Origin: Candidatus Heimdallarchaeota archaeon | Lineage (GTDB): Archaea > Asgardarchaeota > Heimdallarchaeia > Heimdallarchaeales > Heimdallarchaeaceae | NCBI GenBank assembly: GCA_016840095.1 | Contig: JAEOSZ010000108.1 | Coordinates: forward strand, 1 to 21,595 | DNA: 21,595 bases | Direction of reading: 5' to 3' | Part shown: positions 6,844 to 21,569 of the stretch, piece by piece | Position numbering within the stretch: position 1 is the stretch's first letter | Layout: each line of letters starts with the position of its first letter | The notes under the pieces: generated by a model | Seen by the model: the letters and a program-made list of their open reading frames with translations, nothing else | The model's database searches: none | Told to the model about the DNA's origin: nothing | Position numbers and translations under genes: made by a program

Positions 6844-7701
6844 GTGTTTACATTAGATTTGATTGTCACTGGTAAGCAAGCTTCATTGGATTTTGAGGTC
6901 GGTTTAGTTTCCACGAGTAATAAATTCATTTTAGTAGATAGTTTAATTCAAGAATTAGATTTGTCACCTCTTTCAAAGTGCAAAAATCTACAAGAAGTAG
7001 TTCTTAGTTCGAACCATCTTACTGAGATAGATTTGAAACCTTTATCCAACTGCAAGAAACTTCAAAAATTGGATATCAGTCACAATCAGCTTCTCACAAT
7101 TGATTTGACACCATTAAGTAAGTGTACTAGTCTTGAAGTTGTATATTTTCAAAATAACCTTCTAAGTGAGGTTGATCTCACCCCTCTTCAGTTTATCAAA
7201 GAGCTTAGAGTTATTAATTTAGATTATAATTTACTTAATAAGGTTATTCTACCAAAGAACACTCAGTGGGACAATGTGGAAGAGTTAAGACTCTATAGTA
7301 ACTATCTTGAGAAAATTGACTTGAACGCACTTGAACAATGTAAAAAAATACGAGAAATTGATTTAGGGGATAATTTACTTTCTAAGATAAATTTGAAACC
7401 ATTCTATAATTATACACAAATTAATTCAATATCTTTGGAGAGAAATAAGTTAAAAGAAATCGATTTAAGTTCTTTGGATAAAAAACAACATTCCTATGTA
7501 TTATGCACAGATCCCAATGTTAAGTTGAAGAGATTTGATAAAGGAACTAAGATGGATAAAGCAAAGATAGTCTATTCTAAGGGTGAATACTATAGTGAAG
7601 AGCAAGAGCGTGTAATTAATCAATTTCTTAATTCTGAGAAGGAAGAAAAAAGACTTCAAAGAGATTACATATTGAATAAAACTTCTAAAAAACTAAATTA
7701 A
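6844..7701 (+). CDS. Leucine-rich repeat protein (24-residue repeats)
   Basis: Seven consecutive 24-aa repeats of consensus LxxIDLxPLxxCxxLxxLxLxxNx (e.g. LTEIDLKPLSNCKKLQKLDISHNQ) plus a partial eighth. The GTG start overlaps the SD GAGGTG, so the true start may be TTG at 6859. Confidence 0.9.
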   Translation: MFTLDLIVTGKQASLDFEVGLVSTSNKFILVDSLIQELDLSPLSKCKNLQEVVLSSNHLTEIDLKPLSNCKKLQKLDISHNQLLTIDLTPLSKCTSLEVVYFQNNLLSEVDLTPLQFIKELRVINLDYNLLNKVILPKNTQWDNVEELRLYSNYLEKIDLNALEQCKKIREIDLGDNLLSKINLKPFYNYTQINSISLERNKLKEIDLSSLDKKQHSYVLCTDPNVKLKRFDKGTKMDKAKIVYSKGEYYSEEQERVINQFLNSEKEEKRLQRDYILNKTSKKLN

Positions 7702-7732: not shown

Positions 7733-8119
7733 TCACATACCAGCCAGAACTTCGACTGTTTCTGGTACATATCTCTTAATAACTTGCATTGCTAAACCTA
7801 CATTATGTAAATCTCTACTAGCACCAATTAAGATGTATTCACCCGCACTTGCTAGTATTGTAAACCCTTCTTCTCCTCTGATTAAAACTTGTTCCAAATC
7901 TCCATGTGCAAGATTTCCAGTTACCATTTTCCCTGTGGATAAGATTGCTGAAGAAACTGCACTTAGTAAATCAGGATCAGTTCCTTTTTCAGAAAAGAAA
8001 GCAACTTTTATTCCTTCAGCGTTTACAACTGCTAAAGCTTCTAGGTCACATCCTAAAGAGATTTGTTTTAGTATTCTTACTAATTGTTTTTTTTGCGCAG
8101 CTGATAGATCAATAGACAT
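7733..8119 (-). CDS. Roadblock/LC7 (MglB/LAMTOR2-like) domain protein
   Basis: 128 aa with ALAVVNAEG...DPDLLSAVSSAILSTG...GDLEQVLIRGEEGFTILASAGEYILI, the typical Robl_LC7 pattern. SD GGTG. Confidence 0.9.
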   Translation of the reverse strand: MSIDLSAAQKKQLVRILKQISLGCDLEALAVVNAEGIKVAFFSEKGTDPDLLSAVSSAILSTGKMVTGNLAHGDLEQVLIRGEEGFTILASAGEYILIGASRDLHNVGLAMQVIKRYVPETVEVLAGM

Positions 8120-11880: not shown

Positions 11881-13281
11881 TTGCCGGCAATATCTAGTTG
11901 TAGCTTTTGTAGTGGTCCCGCACAATACTATTGTAAATCTTGTAAAAGGAAACTTTGTACTGAACATATTCACATGTCAAATACAGTTTATTCTTGTTCA
12001 ACATGTGGAATCGAGAGTCTAGATTCTAAATGTCAGAAATGTGGATCCGCAACAGAATTTTCCAGAAATGAACCTACTAATAGCTGTGAATGGTGTAAAT
12101 CAATTGACGTAGAAGATGGTCTTCTTTATCATCAACAGCTTCCTCATTTGATATTTTCCTCATTTTCTCTAATAAACAAAAAACTTTCTCAAGTATGGAA
12201 TTTAACTCAGAAATATCTTGAAATTGTTAAGAATGTCTATGATATGAGAAAAGCGAAAATTATGCTTTTTGGTGATGTGGAAGATGAAATTACTCTTTTA
12301 AGGGGAAAAATCTCAACATTCATTGATCAGTTGGTCAAGTTCGAAAATGATACTTTTGCAATGATAGATGAGAAGCTTCGTACTATTGGGTATATGAGGT
12401 TCACAAATCTTGATAATATAGAAAGAGGTGAAGAAATTCTTAATTTACTTGAAAATAGATTAGATTTACTTGATACTACAATAGAATCAAAGTTCAATGA
12501 AATCAATGAAGATTTCCAGTTTCTTAACCAAAAAGTTGATTTTCTGAGCTTTCAATTTGGTTTGTTAAGTAAGATCCACCATCTTCTGCCTGAAGATAAG
12601 GATGAACATCTTATTTCTATACTTCCACGCATTTGGTTAAAGAAAAATAACAAGTTACCTAAAAAATTCCTCATTGTACTTACAAACAAGAATCTATACT
12701 TATTACGAGAAAAAGGTTTGTTCAATGTTAAACTTAAAACAAAAGAAACTGTAAGCTTATCTTATATTATAAACAAGAAGTTTATCTCTAGAATATTATC
12801 TCGAGATATGTTTCGATTTAAAACTAGATTGGATACATACTCATTTCTTGGAAGAAAAGAAAATCTTGAACAATTTGTGATTTATTTTGAAATACTTGAA
12901 AATTATATTGATTACTCTATTCACAAATCATCTATAATTGAGGATCTTAAGTATTATTCTCTAACAATCAATGAATTGAAAACAAATATACAAAGAAACG
13001 TGAGTCATCTACGAGCTTACTTACTAAATAAGCGAGAATTGAAGAGGGAACTTTATTGGAGAGAAGGGCAAGATGCCAGATTCAAGAAGTTGTTTGAGCA
13101 ATTATTAGCAGTAGAAAGGAAGATTCACAGATTGAATGAAACACGAAGACATGGAGCTCGAGGAACTAAGGGTATAGATGGTTTACTAAGAAAACTTACT
13201 AGTGAGCATCATAGACTCAAACGACAATTGGATGATATTCAAAGAAAAAGTGCAGAATTTGATGATTTGTGGGAGTTTTAA
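11881..13281 (+). CDS. Hypothetical multi-zinc-finger / coiled-coil / PH-like domain protein
   Basis: Five CxxC and one CxxH in residues 7-72. Long helical region ~85-235, beta-rich basic segment with IVLTNKNLYLL (bPH/GRAM-like) at ~243-340, and a C-terminal coiled coil. TTG start preceded by GGGTG. Confidence 0.75.
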   Translation: MPAISSCSFCSGPAQYYCKSCKRKLCTEHIHMSNTVYSCSTCGIESLDSKCQKCGSATEFSRNEPTNSCEWCKSIDVEDGLLYHQQLPHLIFSSFSLINKKLSQVWNLTQKYLEIVKNVYDMRKAKIMLFGDVEDEITLLRGKISTFIDQLVKFENDTFAMIDEKLRTIGYMRFTNLDNIERGEEILNLLENRLDLLDTTIESKFNEINEDFQFLNQKVDFLSFQFGLLSKIHHLLPEDKDEHLISILPRIWLKKNNKLPKKFLIVLTNKNLYLLREKGLFNVKLKTKETVSLSYIINKKFISRILSRDMFRFKTRLDTYSFLGRKENLEQFVIYFEILENYIDYSIHKSSIIEDLKYYSLTINELKTNIQRNVSHLRAYLLNKRELKRELYWREGQDARFKKLFEQLLAVERKIHRLNETRRHGARGTKGIDGLLRKLTSEHHRLKRQLDDIQRKSAEFDDLWEF

Positions 13282-14172: not shown

Positions 14173-14787
14173 ATGTTTCGAGACTTTATGGGATGGCTAT
14201 TAGGTACAAAGAAGAGCCCTCGTGACCACATTATTAATCTTCGACTAACAGTAAGAAGATTAGAAAGAGCACAAAGAAAACTTGCTCGTGATGAGTCAAA
14301 AATGCAACTGAAAATGAAGCAAAGTATTCAACGAGGAGATTTGGAATCTGCAAGGTTATTCGCAACAGATATAGTTCGTAGTAGACGATGGGAATTTGGA
14401 TATCAAAAACTAGTTTCCCGAATGAATGGTCTAATTTTCAAACTCGAACGAGCAGATACTGCAGCCAGTATGGCAGAAGAAATGCATGGTATAGCCAATG
14501 CGTTAAGAGCAGCAAATGCTCAACTTCAAATTCCGGATCTAGATAGAGTGATTCAAGACATGGAAAGCTCAATTGATGGTATAGAAGAATCAACAGGAAC
14601 CATCGAGGATGGTATTGATGATTTGCTAATTGCTGATTCTGATCCAGCTGAAGTCGATAGATTGATTGAACAAACAGCTGCTGAATTAGGTGTTTCTACT
14701 CAAGCTGGCTTACCAACAGTTGGTGTTGTGCAGACTGATGACTTAGAGGAAGAAATCCAAAAATTAAGAAGACGAGAAGAGGATTAA
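14173..14787 (+). CDS. ESCRT-III subunit, Vps2/24/46 (CHMP1-3) class
   Basis: Snf7-family helical hairpin LRLTVRRLERAQRKL...GDLESARLFATDIVRSR. N-terminal amphipathic MFRDFMGWLLG, EVDRLIEQTAAE, and C-terminal MIM1-like DDLEEEIQKLRR. Confidence 0.93.
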   Translation: MFRDFMGWLLGTKKSPRDHIINLRLTVRRLERAQRKLARDESKMQLKMKQSIQRGDLESARLFATDIVRSRRWEFGYQKLVSRMNGLIFKLERADTAASMAEEMHGIANALRAANAQLQIPDLDRVIQDMESSIDGIEESTGTIEDGIDDLLIADSDPAEVDRLIEQTAAELGVSTQAGLPTVGVVQTDDLEEEIQKLRRREED

Positions 14788-14800
14788 AAGGTGATTATAA

Positions 14801-15454
14801 ATGGTTAAGAATTGGCTTTTTGGAAAGAAGAGAAAAGAAGATGCAGATGCATTAGCTACTCTCAAAGGGCAACAAAACAGATTACAAGCTGAAGCTAGAA
14901 ATCTTGAAAGACAATCAGATGAACAAAAAATCTTAGCCTCAAAAATGCTCAAAGCTGGTAACAAAGCTGGAGCAAGACAAGCTCTTAAACGAAGAGCTGT
15001 TTTCATGAAAAGATTAAATACAGTTCATAACACAGCGATGAATCTTCAAGCTCAAATTGACAGCATACAAACAGCTACTTCAACAGCAGAAACTGTAAAA
15101 GCAATGGAGCTTGGTACAAAAGTTGTTGGGGAGAAAATAAAAACTGTATCTCCAGAAAGGACAGAACGTGTTATGGATTCTGTTATGGAACAGAGAGACC
15201 AAATCGAAATGATGACCGAAGCTCTGTCTGATCCAAGTTTATCTGAAGGTATTCTAGATTTTGAAGATGATGCTGCAATTGATGAGCAATTAGCTCAATT
15301 AGAAGCTGAGATGGATTTAGGTACAACTACAAGTTTACCTGATGTTAGCGGTCTTCCATCAACTCCAGTAGGAACAAGTGAGACTGAAGATACATCAGAG
15401 CTTGAAGCTGAGCTTGAAGGCTTAAAGAAAAAAATGAGTGAAGATAAGCAATAA
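14801..15454 (+). CDS. ESCRT-III subunit, Vps20/32/60 (Snf7/CHMP4-7) class
   Basis: MVKNWLFGKK N-terminus, GNKAGARQALKRR, NLQAQIDSIQTA, DEQLAQLEAE, MIM2-like LPDVSGLPSTP and C-terminal ELEAELEGLKKKM. SD GGTGA. Confidence 0.94.
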   Translation: MVKNWLFGKKRKEDADALATLKGQQNRLQAEARNLERQSDEQKILASKMLKAGNKAGARQALKRRAVFMKRLNTVHNTAMNLQAQIDSIQTATSTAETVKAMELGTKVVGEKIKTVSPERTERVMDSVMEQRDQIEMMTEALSDPSLSEGILDFEDDAAIDEQLAQLEAEMDLGTTTSLPDVSGLPSTPVGTSETEDTSELEAELEGLKKKMSEDKQ

Positions 15455-15575: not shown

Positions 15576-16733
15576 GTGAATCACGTGTCTGCTCAAGGAT
15601 TAATCGATCACGCAAGAGATTTTGCAGTTAAAGCTTATTCTTATGATAAAGAGAAAAATTACAGCGAAGCTATACCTCATTATTTGGATGCTGCAGAAGC
15701 TTTAATGAAGGCTATAAAATTTGAAAGAAACCCACAGGTTGCTGGTTCTCTTAAGAAGAAAGCAAATATGTACATAAGTAGAGCAAAGGAACTAAAAGAG
15801 CTTTTAGAAAAGAAAAAAGAAAGAAAATCCACAGCAGGTAGTGATGAGGAAGAAGAAAAACTAGAAAGTGCTATATCAGATATAATAGTTACAGAGAAAC
15901 CAAACATTACTCTAAATGATATTGCAGGCTTAGAAACTGCTAAACAGACTTTGAGAGAAGCAATTGTTCTACCTTTAATGAGACCAGATTTGTTTTCAGG
16001 GGCAAGGAGACCCTGGAAAGGTATCTTACTTTTTGGCCCTCCTGGGTGCGGTAAAACTCTATTAGCAAAAGCAACTGCAGCTGAAGTAGCAGCAACTTTT
16101 TTCAATGTAAGTGCATCCTCCATAATTTCAAAATGGCTTGGTGAATCAGAGAAACTGGTTAAACAGCTCTTCGAGTTAGCAGATGAAAGACAACCTAGTA
16201 TTATTTTTGTGGATGAGGTTGATGCACTAGCTGGTGCAAGAGGAGGAGAACACGACGCAATGCGAAGAGTGAAGACAGAACTGCTGACATCAATGGATGG
16301 TTTATCCAGTTCAGAAACAGATCGTATTGTTACTGTAGGTGCAACTAATATACCTGAATCAATTGATGCTGCTTTCCGAAGAAGATTTGAGAGAAGAATT
16401 TATATCCCATTACCAGATTTAGCTGCTCGTGGAGCTATTTTTCTGCTTAACTCTAAAGGTGTAGAATTAGGAGATGATGTTGATTTCGAAGTTTTAGCTG
16501 AAATCACCGATGGGTATTCTGGTTCTGATATTGCAATGGTATGCCGAGAAGCAATCATGACACCAATTAGAGAAATGGATATGGCAGGAGCAATTGATGA
16601 TACTTCAATAACAGCAAGAGCAGTAACACAAGATGATTATCTTGAGGCTATTGAGGCTATCAATCCATCTGTAAGTGATGATGAGATTGAGAAATACGAT
16701 AGATGGAATGAAGAATTTGGCAGCAGTGCATGA
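15576..16733 (+). CDS. vps4: Vps4 AAA ATPase (MIT + AAA + Vps4_C)
   Basis: MIT domain (AVKAYSYDKEKNYSEAIPHY...YISRAKELK), Walker A GPPGCGKT, pore loop SKWLGESEK, Walker B IIFVDE, Arg fingers RRRFERR and C-terminal WNEEFG. The start may be GTG at 15585. Confidence 0.97.
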   Translation: MNHVSAQGLIDHARDFAVKAYSYDKEKNYSEAIPHYLDAAEALMKAIKFERNPQVAGSLKKKANMYISRAKELKELLEKKKERKSTAGSDEEEEKLESAISDIIVTEKPNITLNDIAGLETAKQTLREAIVLPLMRPDLFSGARRPWKGILLFGPPGCGKTLLAKATAAEVAATFFNVSASSIISKWLGESEKLVKQLFELADERQPSIIFVDEVDALAGARGGEHDAMRRVKTELLTSMDGLSSSETDRIVTVGATNIPESIDAAFRRRFERRIYIPLPDLAARGAIFLLNSKGVELGDDVDFEVLAEITDGYSGSDIAMVCREAIMTPIREMDMAGAIDDTSITARAVTQDDYLEAIEAINPSVSDDEIEKYDRWNEEFGSSA

Positions 16734-16750: not shown

Positions 16751-17509
16751 ATGTCTACTACTGAGAAGAAGAAGCCAAAGAAAGAGAAATCAGCTGAAAT
16801 AGATCTGAAAAAATTAAAGGAAGAAAAAGAAGTTTCAGATGAAAAACTAAAGCTTATTGAAGCTAGTATAAAGGGATTAGAGATAACAGCTGAAGAACTC
16901 AAATCAACTTTACCTGCTGTTGATGCTATTATAGTTAAAGAGGATCTTTCAAAAGACCAAAGGGCAGTTTTAGAATTAGAATTTGAGGAAGAGCTTCCAG
17001 CATGGGTAAAAAGACCTTGGATGTATATTAAACCAAAGAAGGATGATCAAGTAGAATCTTGGTTGCAAAGTTGGTCAGCTATAGTATTGGATTATTCTCG
17101 TATTTTTGTTATTCATATTATAAACATCAATGATTTGAGAAGTGTCCATCCTTTCAACAATAAGGAATTGGGAAAGAGACTGACACTAGCACAAGTAAGA
17201 AGTGTAATTGATCATTTAGTTCAACAGAATATTGCCCGTTGGTTAGATGAAGATACTAAAACAAGAGCCCGAATTTATTGGAAGTCAAATGACGAATGGG
17301 CTGATGCCCTTTTAGATTTCATGATTGAGACTGGAAGAGTTGTAGAAGTACATTCTCTTTATGATTTAACTCAGATGAACGAAAAATGGGGCAATTTACC
17401 TGCTGATGATTTGATAATAGTTTGCGAGATGCTAGTAGAACGTAAAGTTGCTCGATGGTTAAATAAAGAAAAAACTATAATTCAGTTTGAAGCTGATAAA
17501 GTGTTTTAA
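16751..17509 (+). CDS. vps25: ESCRT-II subunit Vps25-like, with N-terminal basic/coiled-coil extension
   Basis: SWLQSWSAIVLDY, PFNNKELGKRL and ARWLDEDTKTRARIYWKSNDEWADAL parallel eukaryotic Vps25 (AAWCSLVLSF, LFNNVKLQRKL, LEWLDKSK..IMWRRPEEWG). Tandem winged helix; located in the ESCRT locus. Confidence 0.9.
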   Translation: MSTTEKKKPKKEKSAEIDLKKLKEEKEVSDEKLKLIEASIKGLEITAEELKSTLPAVDAIIVKEDLSKDQRAVLELEFEEELPAWVKRPWMYIKPKKDDQVESWLQSWSAIVLDYSRIFVIHIININDLRSVHPFNNKELGKRLTLAQVRSVIDHLVQQNIARWLDEDTKTRARIYWKSNDEWADALLDFMIETGRVVEVHSLYDLTQMNEKWGNLPADDLIIVCEMLVERKVARWLNKEKTIIQFEADKVF

Positions 17510-17526: not shown

Positions 17527-18252
17527 CTAAAGACTCATCAATCCAGGGAACCAGTATTTCACTCCTTCTGAATAACTTCTGTCTACTCTAGCAATACTAT
17601 TTTCTTCAAAGAATTTTAAACATCTATCTATTCGCTCTTCAGTCCAACTTGTTCTCATTAACAAGTCTTCCTTAGTAACAAATCCAACTCTAGATGCATA
17701 ATTTAGAATAACATCATGATCAGGACTAAATTCTACTGGTACAAATTCTATTATCTTTAAACCAGAATCTAATACTCTGTAAGGAGGAATTAATTGAGAA
17801 TTAATTAGCTTCTCTAAAGATCTATACATATCATCAATTGAGACCATTCTGCCAGGACGAGTTTTATTGAGTTGTGTAAATAATTCTCCCAAAGCCATAA
17901 TACCGCCATTTTCTGGAATCAATTGTTGTCCTATTTCAAGAAGTTCGTTAGCTAGCACATCATAGAAACCTTTTCCTGAGAGCTTATCTTTAAGAGTTGG
18001 AGCTTCTTTCCAATCAAAGCGTCCAATTTCTGTGGGTAACCCTAATTCTTCTCTCAAATTTGCTAATTTATCATAATAATCTTTATTTTCAGAGATTTTG
18101 TCTCCATATTTTTTCTCAAACTTTTTCAGCTGTTTCTTAACTTCACTAATGTTATTAATCATCTGTTCTAATTCTTTGATCATTAGTTCTGCTTCTTTTA
18201 CTTGAAAAGCTGATTTAACTTTGATCTTTTTTTCTATGTCTCTTAAACCCAC
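17527..18252 (-). CDS. vps22: ESCRT-II subunit Vps22/Vps36-like (EAP30 domain)
   Basis: FYDVLANELLEI...NGGIMALGEL...VSIDDMYRSLEKL and C-terminal YWFPGL match the EAP30 winged-helix family. GTG at 18252 after GGAGA is the likely start; the ORF track uses TTG at 18264. Confidence 0.92.
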   Translation of the reverse strand: MGLRDIEKKIKVKSAFQVKEAELMIKELEQMINNISEVKKQLKKFEKKYGDKISENKDYYDKLANLREELGLPTEIGRFDWKEAPTLKDKLSGKGFYDVLANELLEIGQQLIPENGGIMALGELFTQLNKTRPGRMVSIDDMYRSLEKLINSQLIPPYRVLDSGLKIIEFVPVEFSPDHDVILNYASRVGFVTKEDLLMRTSWTEERIDRCLKFFEENSIARVDRSYSEGVKYWFPGLMSL

Positions 18253-18321
18253 TTCTATCTCCAACTTTGTTATTGTCTAGGACTTATTTATATCTTCTCA
18301 AATACATTGCTAAATTATTAA

Positions 18322-18636
18322 TTATATAACGTCTGCTAATTTTAAGAGCCATCTCTTTATCTTTTCAGTTAAAGAACTACTCTCTCTAGGTGAAAGAAAT
18401 GCCGCTAGTTTGTTTTTGTATTTATTGAAATAAGAATTATAGATTTGCATCATCTCTTCATGAATCTTCTTCCCTTCATCCCCAAGATTTTTTATTTCAT
18501 AAGAAATATTCTCTAGTTCCTCAAGAATGTAGCCCACATCTATTTTAATTTCTATCATGTTGATTAATTCAAACATTTCCTTTCGAATGTTTACGAACAT
18601 ATCGTTAATGGAACTAGTTCTTTCCAAGTAATTCAC
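18322..18636 (-). CDS. Small helical protein, putative stand-alone Vps28 C-terminal domain paralog
   Basis: Co-oriented between the ESCRT-I fusion and vps22, with SD GGTGA (likely start TTG at 18627). By-eye alignment to the C-terminal ~90 aa of 18699..20108 gives ELI/ELI, EEM/EDM, NKYK/GKYK and LxxxxxRWL/LxxxxxRWL in register. Confidence 0.6.
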   Translation of the reverse strand: MNYLERTSSINDMFVNIRKEMFELINMIEIKIDVGYILEELENISYEIKNLGDEGKKIHEEMMQIYNSYFNKYKNKLAAFLSPRESSSLTEKIKRWLLKLADVI

Positions 18637-18698
18637 CTAGTAACTTATCATAAAGAATGGAAAGAAAGGAATTAAAGAATCAAAACAAGCTTTTGGCA

Positions 18699-20108
18699 TT
18701 AGAGTTCCTTCAAAACTCTTCGAAAGTCATTAAGCCATCGAGCTGCTTGAAATTCTAATTTTTCACAATCTTCTTCTTTAATTATCTCCTGAGGTTTGTA
18801 TTTACCAATGATATCACGCCAGTTGTTCATATCTTCAATTGCCCAGTGATCTTTGGGAATTGAAGGGAATGTTGTCAGAATGTGTATCATTTCTTCTATG
18901 TCTGCGAGTAAGAGATCTGCTCTAGCTACTGATCTTAATCGTGTTAAATCTATCAGTTCAATTGCTGATGATACGAAATCAGCTGTTTTAGATGGCATCT
19001 TCTTAAGGGTATCAAATGGAATTGAATTTGTATCGGCGGTTTCTTCACCTTCAACTGCCATGAGTTGTTTGATTCCTTTTGGATACCTATTTTCCAGATT
19101 TTCTCGCTTAATGAAGTTATCTAATTTAAAACCTACTTTTTCTAATTCTAATCTTGTCTTGAAAATCCCTCTAATGAGAGCTCGTAGTTGTTTTCTATAC
19201 GCGATCTGTTCAATCTCACTGTTTTCATATCCTCTCACAAGATTGTCTAATGTTGCAATCGATGCAAATAGATCAGCTTCTAAATTCAATATCTTATCTT
19301 CTGCTTTTGTCATGTCACCACTTGAGCTACTTTTAATTTTATTAAGTTGTTTCTCTGCTATAAATCCTTTTTTAGTATATCTTTTATGCAGCTTGAGATA
19401 ATCGATATTTGTCATATCTCCATCTTCAAATTTTTCTTGTATAACTTCTAAGGTATCTTGAACTGCTAAAGATTCTGATCTTAAATCCTCTTCTCTTGAA
19501 ATAGAAATTTCTTTGGTTCTACTTTGTACGGCAATTCCACCTTCTTTCAAAAGAGATTCTCTTTCTTTTTCTATATCTCTTGTAACTTGCTCTATTTGGT
19601 TTTGATAAAACATTATTGAACTATCAATTGAGCGCTTTTCTTCCTCAATTTCTGGATCCATGCTAACAAAGGAAGCTTGAGGTAGTGTTCTGACAGGAAT
19701 AGTTGAACTAGGTAATCCTGTATATCTTTGTTCCATTTTAGGTTTCTTGATTTTTGTTTTATATGCTTTTGCTGGAACATTGATGAAGAGTTGTTTAATA
19801 TCAATCATGATCTGATAAATGTGATATCTTGGTTCCCATTCTGCTAGAAGACGCATACTTAAAGTTCCATCTTCATCTACATTTGGGTGATTTACTTTAG
19901 GAGTTATGTCAACAAATGGAGGAACATCTGGAAAACCATCTTGAATGTAAACATTGGCAAAGATTGGAATTTCAGTATCTTCTATTGTTCCGACATACCC
20001 TTTCCATTGTTTCAAATTACCTCTAACAGGTTCGAAATTTAATTGTTTATCAAATACTAGTTGCATTTCATTTGCAAGAAGGAAATCATCTGTGGAAATT
20101 TTGTTCAC
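18699..20108 (-). CDS. ESCRT-I fusion protein: UEV (E2-like, inactive) - coiled-coil stalk - Vps23 steadiness box - Vps28 N- and C-terminal domains
   Basis: UBC fold FPDVPPFV...HPNVDEDGTLSMRLLAEW with Ser at the catalytic Cys position. SB box AVQDTLEVIQEKFEDGDMTNIDYLK..RY..KGF, Vps28-N ADLFASIATLDNLVRGY and Vps28-CTD FVSSAIELIDLTRL...W...KLEFQ. Confidence 0.9.
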   Translation of the reverse strand: MNKISTDDFLLANEMQLVFDKQLNFEPVRGNLKQWKGYVGTIEDTEIPIFANVYIQDGFPDVPPFVDITPKVNHPNVDEDGTLSMRLLAEWEPRYHIYQIMIDIKQLFINVPAKAYKTKIKKPKMEQRYTGLPSSTIPVRTLPQASFVSMDPEIEEEKRSIDSSIMFYQNQIEQVTRDIEKERESLLKEGGIAVQSRTKEISISREEDLRSESLAVQDTLEVIQEKFEDGDMTNIDYLKLHKRYTKKGFIAEKQLNKIKSSSSGDMTKAEDKILNLEADLFASIATLDNLVRGYENSEIEQIAYRKQLRALIRGIFKTRLELEKVGFKLDNFIKRENLENRYPKGIKQLMAVEGEETADTNSIPFDTLKKMPSKTADFVSSAIELIDLTRLRSVARADLLLADIEEMIHILTTFPSIPKDHWAIEDMNNWRDIIGKYKPQEIIKEEDCEKLEFQAARWLNDFRRVLKEL

Positions 20109-20189: not shown

Positions 20190-21194
20190 TTAATCTGATA
20201 TTTGTAATACTATTTTTATTGGTTGGGCTAGATTCTTATCTAGAACGAAAATTACAGCTTTATCAGTTTTTATTGCGTCTTCTAAAAACGATTCGATATC
20301 TAAGATTTTGCCTTGAAACATTAAATCTGGTTTTTCTAAACCATATGTTAACATTAATCTCATTCTGAAATCTTTTACAGTTTCTGTTGAAAGTGCAACA
20401 AACTCTATTTGTTCAAGTTTGTACATCTCTCCACATGCTGGGCATTCTTTTGATTTTTCTAGCTCAATGATGGTAACTGCATTGTTAAGACCATCATAAA
20501 AGAGATAATTGGTCAGTTTTTCACCTAGCTCTAGAATTAATTTCAATGCTTCTTGAGCCATAATTCCTCCAATTATAGATGATAATGGAGCAACGGCGGG
20601 TAGAGGAGGTCCAATTTCTATTTCCTTTCTATCTTTTTTTCTCTCTTCTCCAAATGGACTACATGCTTGAGCAAGTTCTTCTTCAGGTACTAAAGGTTGG
20701 CATTCAAAACATGCTGTTTCGTGGGGGATTATTACTTGAGCGTTACCTAGGAAGGCAAACATACCACCCATGACAAGAGGTTTTTTTACCCTAACAGCCA
20801 TTGAATTAATCCACCTTCTATCAATAAAAGTATCCAAACAAGCAACTATGACATCAGCTTGTTCATAAACTGATACAGAAACATCTTGCATTTTTTTATG
20901 GAAGAAATCAATTTTGATATTTGGATTGATTTCTTTTAATCTTTTTGCAGCTGTTTCTGATTTCGATTTACCAACATCTTCATCTTTGAACAACAATTGT
21001 CTATTCAGATTTGAAGTTTCGATAGTATCAAAATCAATTATTGTTAGTTTTTTTATTCCAGAAGAGACGAGTACAGTAGCTACATAACTTCCAATAGCGC
21101 CAATTCCAGCCAAAACAGCACTAGATGTATCAAGTTTAAATTGATCCCATCCAGGAATAAGTTGTTGTCTTGAGTAGCGCTCATCTTCATCCAT
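20190..21194 (-). CDS. Ubiquitin-activating enzyme E1 (ThiF/UBA family) with C-terminal ubiquitin-fold-like domain
   Basis: RYSRQ, GIGAIG nucleotide loop, DFDTIETSNLNRQLLF and Zn pairs CFEC and CPAC. Candidate catalytic Cys in AQACS. C-terminal TVKDF...DLMFQGKILD resembles a beta-grasp UFD. Adjacent to ubiquitin. Confidence 0.92.
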   Translation of the reverse strand: MDEDERYSRQQLIPGWDQFKLDTSSAVLAGIGAIGSYVATVLVSSGIKKLTIIDFDTIETSNLNRQLLFKDEDVGKSKSETAAKRLKEINPNIKIDFFHKKMQDVSVSVYEQADVIVACLDTFIDRRWINSMAVRVKKPLVMGGMFAFLGNAQVIIPHETACFECQPLVPEEELAQACSPFGEERKKDRKEIEIGPPLPAVAPLSSIIGGIMAQEALKLILELGEKLTNYLFYDGLNNAVTIIELEKSKECPACGEMYKLEQIEFVALSTETVKDFRMRLMLTYGLEKPDLMFQGKILDIESFLEDAIKTDKAVIFVLDKNLAQPIKIVLQISD

Positions 21195-21332: not shown

Positions 21333-21569
21333 CTAAAGACCACCCTTAGTTCTGGCAATGAGATAGCATTTATCGCCATCCATCATTCCTGTTTGTTTAA
21401 GTATTTCACTGTCATCTAATTGTTTTCCATGAAAAACTATAATGACTGTGTTAGCAGGAATCTTCTTCTTCTTAGCAACTTCTCTCTTTAATTGTGCAAC
21501 TGTTGAATGTGGATCTACATCTAAATCTATTTTTCCTCCACCAATTGCGGTTACTACAGTTATTCTCAC
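21333..21569 (-). CDS. Ubiquitin-like modifier (pro-ubiquitin ending GG-L)
   Basis: Beta-grasp pattern TVAQLK..V....IP...IIVFHGKQLDD...L, ending ARTKGGL. GTG start after SD GGTGTGA. Confidence 0.96.
   Translation of the reverse strand: MRITVVTAIGGGKIDLDVDPHSTVAQLKREVAKKKKIPANTVIIVFHGKQLDDSEILKQTGMMDGDKCYLIARTKGGL

Follow-up and report, generated by a model that had tools for sequence, protein, structure and literature searches.

A small gene between the ESCRT-I and ESCRT-II genes of a Heimdallarchaeal ubiquitin–ESCRT island probably encodes a stand-alone, ancient paralogue of the Vps28 C-terminal domain

The DNA analysed here, referred to as the window, is a stretch of 21,595 nucleotides from a Candidatus Heimdallarchaeota archaeon (GenBank assembly GCA_016840095.1, contig JAEOSZ010000108.1, positions 1 to 21,595 of the forward strand). 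It carries a typical Heimdall-type Asgard ubiquitin–ESCRT island (Table 1). On the minus strand, a co-directional block runs from ubiquitin through the E1-like enzyme, an ESCRT-I fusion protein and a small gene to Vps22, and the ESCRT-III pair, Vps4 and Vps25 on the plus strand run convergently with this block. The fusion matched the Pfam models UQ_con (2.5e-11), VPS28 (8.4e-10, model positions 2-188) and Vps23_core (1.8e-5), and it is of the type of HeimAB125_14070, which was studied by Hatano et al. 2022 (PMC9192718). It ends in a Vps28 C-terminal four-helix-bundle domain (CTD) of its own, which is the cis paralogue of the small gene product. The small ORF had been singled out in an earlier note, made from the sequence without database searches, as lying between the ESCRT-I and ESCRT-II genes. 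It is indeed flanked by the fusion and by EAP30/Vps22, the latter gene being located 57 nt downstream on the same strand.

Table 1. Genes and features of the window, with the evidence for each
Feature	Position	Strand	Evidence or remark
Ubiquitin	21333..21569	-	Pfam match
ThiF-type E1-like enzyme, upstream of the fusion	20190..21194	-	Pfam match
UEV–Vps23 core–Vps28 fusion, 469 aa, one-chain ESCRT-I	18699..20108	-	Pfam matches
Vps28 C-terminal four-helix-bundle domain of the fusion, residues ~373-469	18702..18992	-	
GGTGA Shine-Dalgarno-like motif	18633..18637	-	5 nt upstream of TTG 18627
Maximal small ORF, opening at GTG 18636	18322..18636	-	104 codons + stop
Stand-alone Vps28-C-like four-helix bundle gene (most likely extent)	18322..18627	-	101 aa from TTG 18627
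EAP30/Vps22 (ESCRT-II)	17527..18264	-	EAP30 8.5e-21
Vps25 (ESCRT-II)	16751..17509	+	ESCRT-II Pfam 4.1e-21; convergent with Vps22
Vps4 AAA ATPase with MIT domain	15576..16733	+	Pfam match
ESCRT-III (Snf7 family), first gene	14173..14787	+	Pfam match
ESCRT-III (Snf7 family), second gene	14801..15454	+	Pfam match
466-aa protein beside the ESCRT island	11881..13281	+	no Pfam match at E <= 0.001
Roadblock/LC7 protein	7733..8119	-	
Leucine-rich-repeat protein	6844..7701	+	

Some further features of the neighbourhood were observed. Vps25 carries an extension of about 90 residues in front of its ESCRT-II Pfam match (residues 92-211), in keeping with reports of N-terminal subdomains in Asgard Vps25. 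The 466-aa protein encoded beside the island was ruled out by hhalign as a relative of the small protein. The Roadblock/LC7 and leucine-rich-repeat proteins, encoded within a few kb of the island, both belong to typical Asgard 'eukaryotic signature' families.

The maximal small ORF is present as the earlier note had described it, and the note had credited it with a Shine-Dalgarno motif of its own, GGTGA. This motif is conserved in 13/13 same-family loci examined, but it does not belong to the listed start. It overlaps the GTG that opens the maximal frame and is therefore unable to serve this codon as a ribosome-binding site; it fits the TTG at 18627 instead. In 12/13 of these loci the fourth codon of the maximal frame is likewise TTG, ATG or GTG. 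The thirteenth (L039, G145 contig C21) has CTG as the fourth codon, with an in-frame TGA between the upstream GTG and the CTG; its start may be non-canonical or lie further downstream, or the sequence may contain an error. Because both the motif and the position of the start codon are kept, at a fixed distance from each other, the gene most likely starts at the TTG. The resulting length of 101 aa is the commonest among the homologues; the GTG would give 104 aa and an ATG at 18600 would give 92 aa. The last of these is the start chosen in one public gene call. Public protein sets already contain this 92-aa product from JAEOSZ010000108.1 itself, so that the ORF can no longer be called unannotated, as it had been in the earlier note. 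HeimAB125_14060 (P0010), labelled 'hypothetical protein', is 89% identical to the window protein.

A word-indexed search returned 43 homologues of 72-104 aa at E <= 0.01. Excluding the 92-aa call of the contig itself and one near-identical copy, these were 43-90% identical to the window protein. Invariant or near-invariant blocks are F/L-E-L-I, E-I-K-I-D-x-G-Y-I-L-E-E, K-Y-K-N-K-L-A-A-F-L and the tryptophan W96. When a profile was searched against 1.84 billion representatives, 14 matches were obtained, nearly all of them family members of about 100 aa or fragments thereof, together with one repeat protein. Judged by these searches the family appears compact and distinct. When 301 Asgard genomes were searched with the profile in six frames, 69 of them, about a quarter, gave matches. 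All genomes were positive in the window's own family (28/28) and in families f6 (11/11), f17 (19/19) and f19 (4/4), and matches were also found in f3 (1/1), f9 (2/2) and f13 (1/1). The same six-frame search gave no match in f2 (0/11), f5 (0/21), f11 (0/76) and f14 (0/68). The gene was found at the same position in all loci examined, across several Asgard families, bearing out the expectation that it would recur there in relatives. The gene is under purifying selection, as this pattern of conservation shows, and we have next to no doubt that it is genuine. The alternative, a chance frame in the spacer between two genes, might be suspected because the ORF is short and AT-rich, lacks a Pfam match and is given different starts by different pipelines. 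It is refuted by the depth of conservation at the protein level, which includes residues that are invariant across several families; the preserved length and position, the constant distance of the Shine-Dalgarno motif from start codons that vary, and the confident fold prediction described below leave this reading virtually no chance.

Two variant forms were noted during these searches. In two f24 genomes, the profile matched the C-terminal domain of frames of about 470 aa (L050:330-1730 (+), on G042 contig C38, and also G059:C282:32-292). The C-terminal ~90 residues of this 466-472-aa protein match at E ~1e-5 and include the motif I-E-L-D-x-x-P-Y-S-I-L-E-E-L. It gave no Pfam match, and the f24 genomes are without any PF03997 match; the protein may represent the stand-alone domain in fusion with other sequence. 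It and the 466-aa protein of the window are not homologues of each other. The second variant, P0047 (97 aa, on a contig of 560 nt), is almost identical to the window protein over its last ~45 residues and unrelated in its first half, and probably results from a frameshift or a chimeric join in the assembly of this very short contig.

The earlier note had taken the small ORF for a separately encoded duplicate of the four-helix bundle that ends Vps28 and had pointed to structure prediction and Foldseek as a check. AlphaFold2, given an alignment of 26 sequences, returned a confident four-helix bundle (mean pLDDT 90.7, pTM 0.80) with helices at residues 3-29, 34-49, 53-73 and 83-103. Among 48,161 chains compared with this model, the yeast Vps28-CTD (2j9u_A) came first (Z 12.0, rmsd 2.2 Å, 92/94 residues). 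The Vps28-CTD structures 2j9w, 2j9v and 2g3k reached Z 12.1-12.2, and rmsd values of 2.1-2.8 over 92-97 residues were obtained for the Vps28-CTD structures (VIA). By the search tool's own warning, Z values below ~13 are common among helical bundles, and comparable values were seen for a redesigned bundle (12.3), a designed binder (11.9-12.1) and CheA P1 (11.9). In the Foldseek search against the PDB, 2j9w had both the best TM score (0.66) and the best probability (0.89), though nothing reached E <= 0.001. Structural neighbours in the ESM Atlas included a eukaryotic Vps28 cluster (TM 0.78, rmsd 2.2 over 101 residues) and two Asgard clusters; a feature search of the same resource with the small protein gave no usable match. 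The Vps28-CTD was thus the top natural match in three independent structure libraries, consistent with its being the best natural structural counterpart of the predicted model. The superposition of bundles speaks for compatibility of the predicted fold with the Vps28-CTD, short of proof of homology. Since the protein of ~101 aa consists of the bundle alone, and the N-terminal half of Vps28 with its steadiness-box hairpin is missing, it is a domain-only paralogue and no Vps28 orthologue.

Homology was examined by comparing profiles with hhalign. An alignment of 35 members of the small family was compared with an alignment of 31 Asgard Vps28 CTDs, made up of the PF03997 matches of 30 genomes and the fusion of the window. 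The two profiles matched with a probability of 86.5%, which is under the usual 95% comfort level, at E 4.6e-6 and a score of 35.9, over 83 colinear columns (16-101 against 11-97 of 103). The small family has a tryptophan in an E...(R/K)W motif in its last helix, and this invariant W96 aligns with the CTD tryptophan of the RW(L/F) motif, kept in 29/31 of the aligned CTDs. When the rows of the fusion family were removed, the match stood at 71.9% and E 3.5e-5. The small-family profile was also aligned with the single fusion sequence; here the best local alignment fell on residues 383-465, within the CTD and in the same register, at E 0.05, which is not significant alone. The by-eye alignment of the earlier note was reproduced by hhalign in the register of helices 1, 2 and 4, but the gap in helix 3 was placed differently.

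Up-down four-helix bundles arise easily, and the small protein might be a generic bundle whose likeness to Vps28-C is convergent. It would then be an accessory protein specific to the cluster, serving the fusion or Vps22 as, say, a chaperone or assembly factor. The tie of its structural scores with designed bundles and CheA P1 agrees with such a reading, as do the searches that gave no Pfam or HMM connection to VPS28. In a single-sequence-to-profile test, PF03997 was matched up to E = 1 neither by the window protein nor by 10 divergent members, the Pfam scan of these sequences returning weak coiled-coil noise only. The six-frame PF03997 search of this genome found the fusion only and left the small gene unmatched. 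BLASTP of the small ORF against the fusion gave nothing significant. The family HMM found no Vps28 among the PDB sequences, where only designed coiled coils appeared (E > 0.002), and gave no link to Vps28 among the 1.84 billion representatives; the fusion CTD, used as a query among shorter proteins, returned fragments of the fusion only.

The hhalign match itself, however, argues against convergence. In 150 column shuffles the score was 11.2 +/- 2.3, with a maximum of 18.9, compared with 35.9 for the native profiles. Controls that keep the helical periodicity scored low as well, the reversed profiles reaching 11.7 and 13.4 and the helical N-terminal half of Vps28 a score of 10. Permutation of the helix blocks in all 24 orders also keeps the periodicity. 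Here the native order scored best, each helix found its cognate, and high scores in permuted orders (up to 32.9) arose only where cognate helices stayed colinear. Helix 4 alone gave about 21, helices 3-4 about 27 and helices 2-4 about 33. All four helices contribute to the native match. The aligned helix-4 tryptophan, the first rank of the Vps28-CTD among natural proteins and an independent published annotation (see below) likewise speak against a generic bundle, which we regard as distinctly improbable. Because the profile–profile match can be taken together with the fold and the gene context, homology of the small protein to the Vps28 C-terminal domain is very probable, in agreement with the central claim of the earlier note.

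The gene order is informative about the age of the small gene. The most divergent family members (L001-L003) have kept the order ubiquitin, E1, fusion, small gene and Vps22. In more distant lineages (L034-L036) Vps23 and Vps28 are unfused, the Vps28 there being a full protein of 202-211 aa with its own CTD, and the small gene lies between vps28 and vps22. Wherever both were among the matches listed, the small-gene match starts 60-100 nt after the VPS28 match. Where the small gene is present, vps28 and vps22 are separated by ~300 nt, which it fills exactly, whereas in lineages without it the two genes adjoin directly or share a few bases, leaving no room for it. A clean presence/absence polymorphism of the small gene was seen between loci L004-L033 and L020/L022/L014. 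The Vps23–Vps28 fusion was restricted to the window's own family in the searched sample (frames of ~470-490 aa). The small gene is found beside unfused Vps28 in other lineages and hence appears to predate the fusion; from its distribution and gene order it is probably an old, lineage-patchy paralogue. A recent duplication of the end of the fusion is ruled out by this occurrence next to unfused Vps28 and by an identity of only about 14% between the small protein and the CTD of the fusion. To describe it as a duplicate of the end of the upstream fusion, as had been done before, is therefore misleading. We consider it likely, on the whole of these data, that the small gene is a real, expressed-type gene for a stand-alone, ancient Vps28-C paralogue in the ESCRT block.

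In eukaryotes, the Vps28-CTD is the element of ESCRT-I that docks on ESCRT-II via Vps36, in yeast by binding the zinc finger of Vps36, and it has also been reported to bind the ESCRT-III subunit Vps20. By analogy, the small protein would be a detachable docking module at the junction of ESCRT-I and ESCRT-II. Homology and gene position together make a function at the ESCRT-I/II/III junction somewhat better than an even prospect. Its most likely role would be an extra CTD-type contact, either to the complex of a symmetric Vps22 homodimer with Vps25 or to a Vps20-like ESCRT-III subunit. A two-fold symmetric Vps22 homodimer has been described (Hatano et al. 2022, PMC9192718). A complex prediction for the small protein and Vps22, both supplied as alignments, gave a score of 0.00, which counts neither for nor against binding.

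The earlier note had left open whether the protein would be a bridge or a decoy. As a competitive decoy or regulator, the free bundle would occupy the docking site of the Vps28-CTD on ESCRT-II or on a Vps20-like ESCRT-III subunit, and would limit or time the coupling of ESCRT-I and ESCRT-II instead of bridging them. A protein that shares fold and homology with the cis CTD and lacks the steadiness-box hairpin for anchoring in the headpiece would suit this role. Moreover, every locus examined has, immediately upstream, the gene for a complete Vps28 that brings its own CTD, so that bridging has no obvious need of a second CTD that lacks an anchor. However, the low identity to the cis CTD and the distinct conserved surface motifs suggest a different partner, and its close, stoichiometric-looking position in the operon is what one would expect of a subunit sooner than of an inhibitor. 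Because the small protein has conserved surface motifs of its own, unlike the cis CTD, and is placed like a stoichiometric operon member, we favour an accessory docking subunit over a pure decoy. A positive bridge is a possibility that we put forward tentatively, and a decoy is unlikely. A more far-reaching form of the docking-subunit reading would make the small protein an obligatory, overlooked subunit that physically joins the Vps22 homodimer, or a Vps20-like ESCRT-III subunit, to the dimeric ESCRT-I fusion. We regard this as rather unlikely. If it were so, the protein would play the part of the ESCRT-I-binding module of eukaryotic Vps36, and reconstitutions without it (Hatano et al. 2022) would miss the native link.

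The Vps28-C interpretation of the small gene has already been published as an annotation, and the statement in the earlier note that no description was known does not hold. Makarova et al. 2024 (mBio, PMC10936438) list cog.004115 in their Table S2, which refers to doi 10.1038/s41586-021-03494-3 for data, as 'Vps28 protein, C-terminal region'. In their text they state that some Asgard genomes have, besides a full vps28, a separate gene for the Vps28 C-terminal domain, and that this domain presumably interacts with ESCRT-II, as in eukaryotes (PMC10936438). The member of cog.004115 in Heimdallarchaeota AB_125, As_001-p_01332 (7115..7351, minus), is the orthologue of the small gene by position and lies between EAP30/Vps22 (As_001-p_01331) and an 'E2 fused to Vps23 core' (As_001-p_01333), the same flanking genes as those of the small gene in the window. 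The spacing to the fusion would also be equal, at 141 nt, if the window ORF started at the equivalent internal methionine. The published call is 78 aa long, in contrast to the 101 aa read here from the conserved Shine-Dalgarno motif and start. Judged by sequence and flanking genes, the small gene of the window is a member of this asCOG. For cog.004115 the publication (PMC10936438) offers annotation only, with no experiment and no dedicated family analysis. Hatano et al. 2022 (PMC9192718) used HeimAB125_14050 (Vps22) and 14070 (fusion), and 14060 is nowhere mentioned; no experiments on the small protein were found in the literature searched.

The main model for the origin of eukaryotic ubiquitin-dependent membrane remodelling is provided by the ESCRT clusters of Asgard archaea. 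For an archaeal handover from ESCRT-I to ESCRT-II without Vps36, an obvious candidate link is a separately encoded Vps28-C module whose place between vps28 and vps22 is fixed. To the published annotation the present analysis adds an independent, controlled confirmation of the Vps28-C assignment, a corrected start codon, the status of an old paralogue present in about a quarter of the sampled Asgard genomes, the abutting of vps28 and vps22 where the gene is missing, and the observation that the published Heimdall biochemistry makes no mention of the small protein. The value of the small gene is thus that of a pointer to include its product in reconstitutions of Heimdall ESCRT-I/II, and no discovery is claimed.

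Compared with known systems, the small protein resembles the eukaryotic Vps28-CTD (2J9U, 2J9V and 2G3K from yeast, 2J9W from Xenopus; the C-terminal half of PF03997), which is likewise an up-down four-helix bundle of ~95 residues, and the association of its gene with ESCRT-I and ESCRT-II genes is a further likeness. Sequence identity between the two is ~5-14%, and the Pfam model misses the small protein. Unlike eukaryotic Vps28, it is not fused to the steadiness-box hairpin and hence cannot sit in the ESCRT-I headpiece in the same way, and the NZF finger of Vps36, the yeast partner, has no Pfam-detectable counterpart in the cluster of the window. With the CTD of the fusion the small protein shares the type of domain, the operon-like block and the predicted order of helices, whereas the invariant motifs ELI..E.KID.GYILEE, KYKNKLAAFL and W96 are absent from that CTD. 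A third comparison is provided by Asgard multidomain proteins in which Vps28-C is combined with adaptin appendage, longin, PCI, TPR and other domains (PMC10936438, Fig. 6B text), and a 788-aa Asgard PCI protein is among the ESM Atlas structural neighbours of the small protein. In these multidomain proteins the bundle is a portable module presumed to dock on ESCRT-II; the window protein, unlike those with cargo- or adaptor-binding partner domains, is the bare domain.
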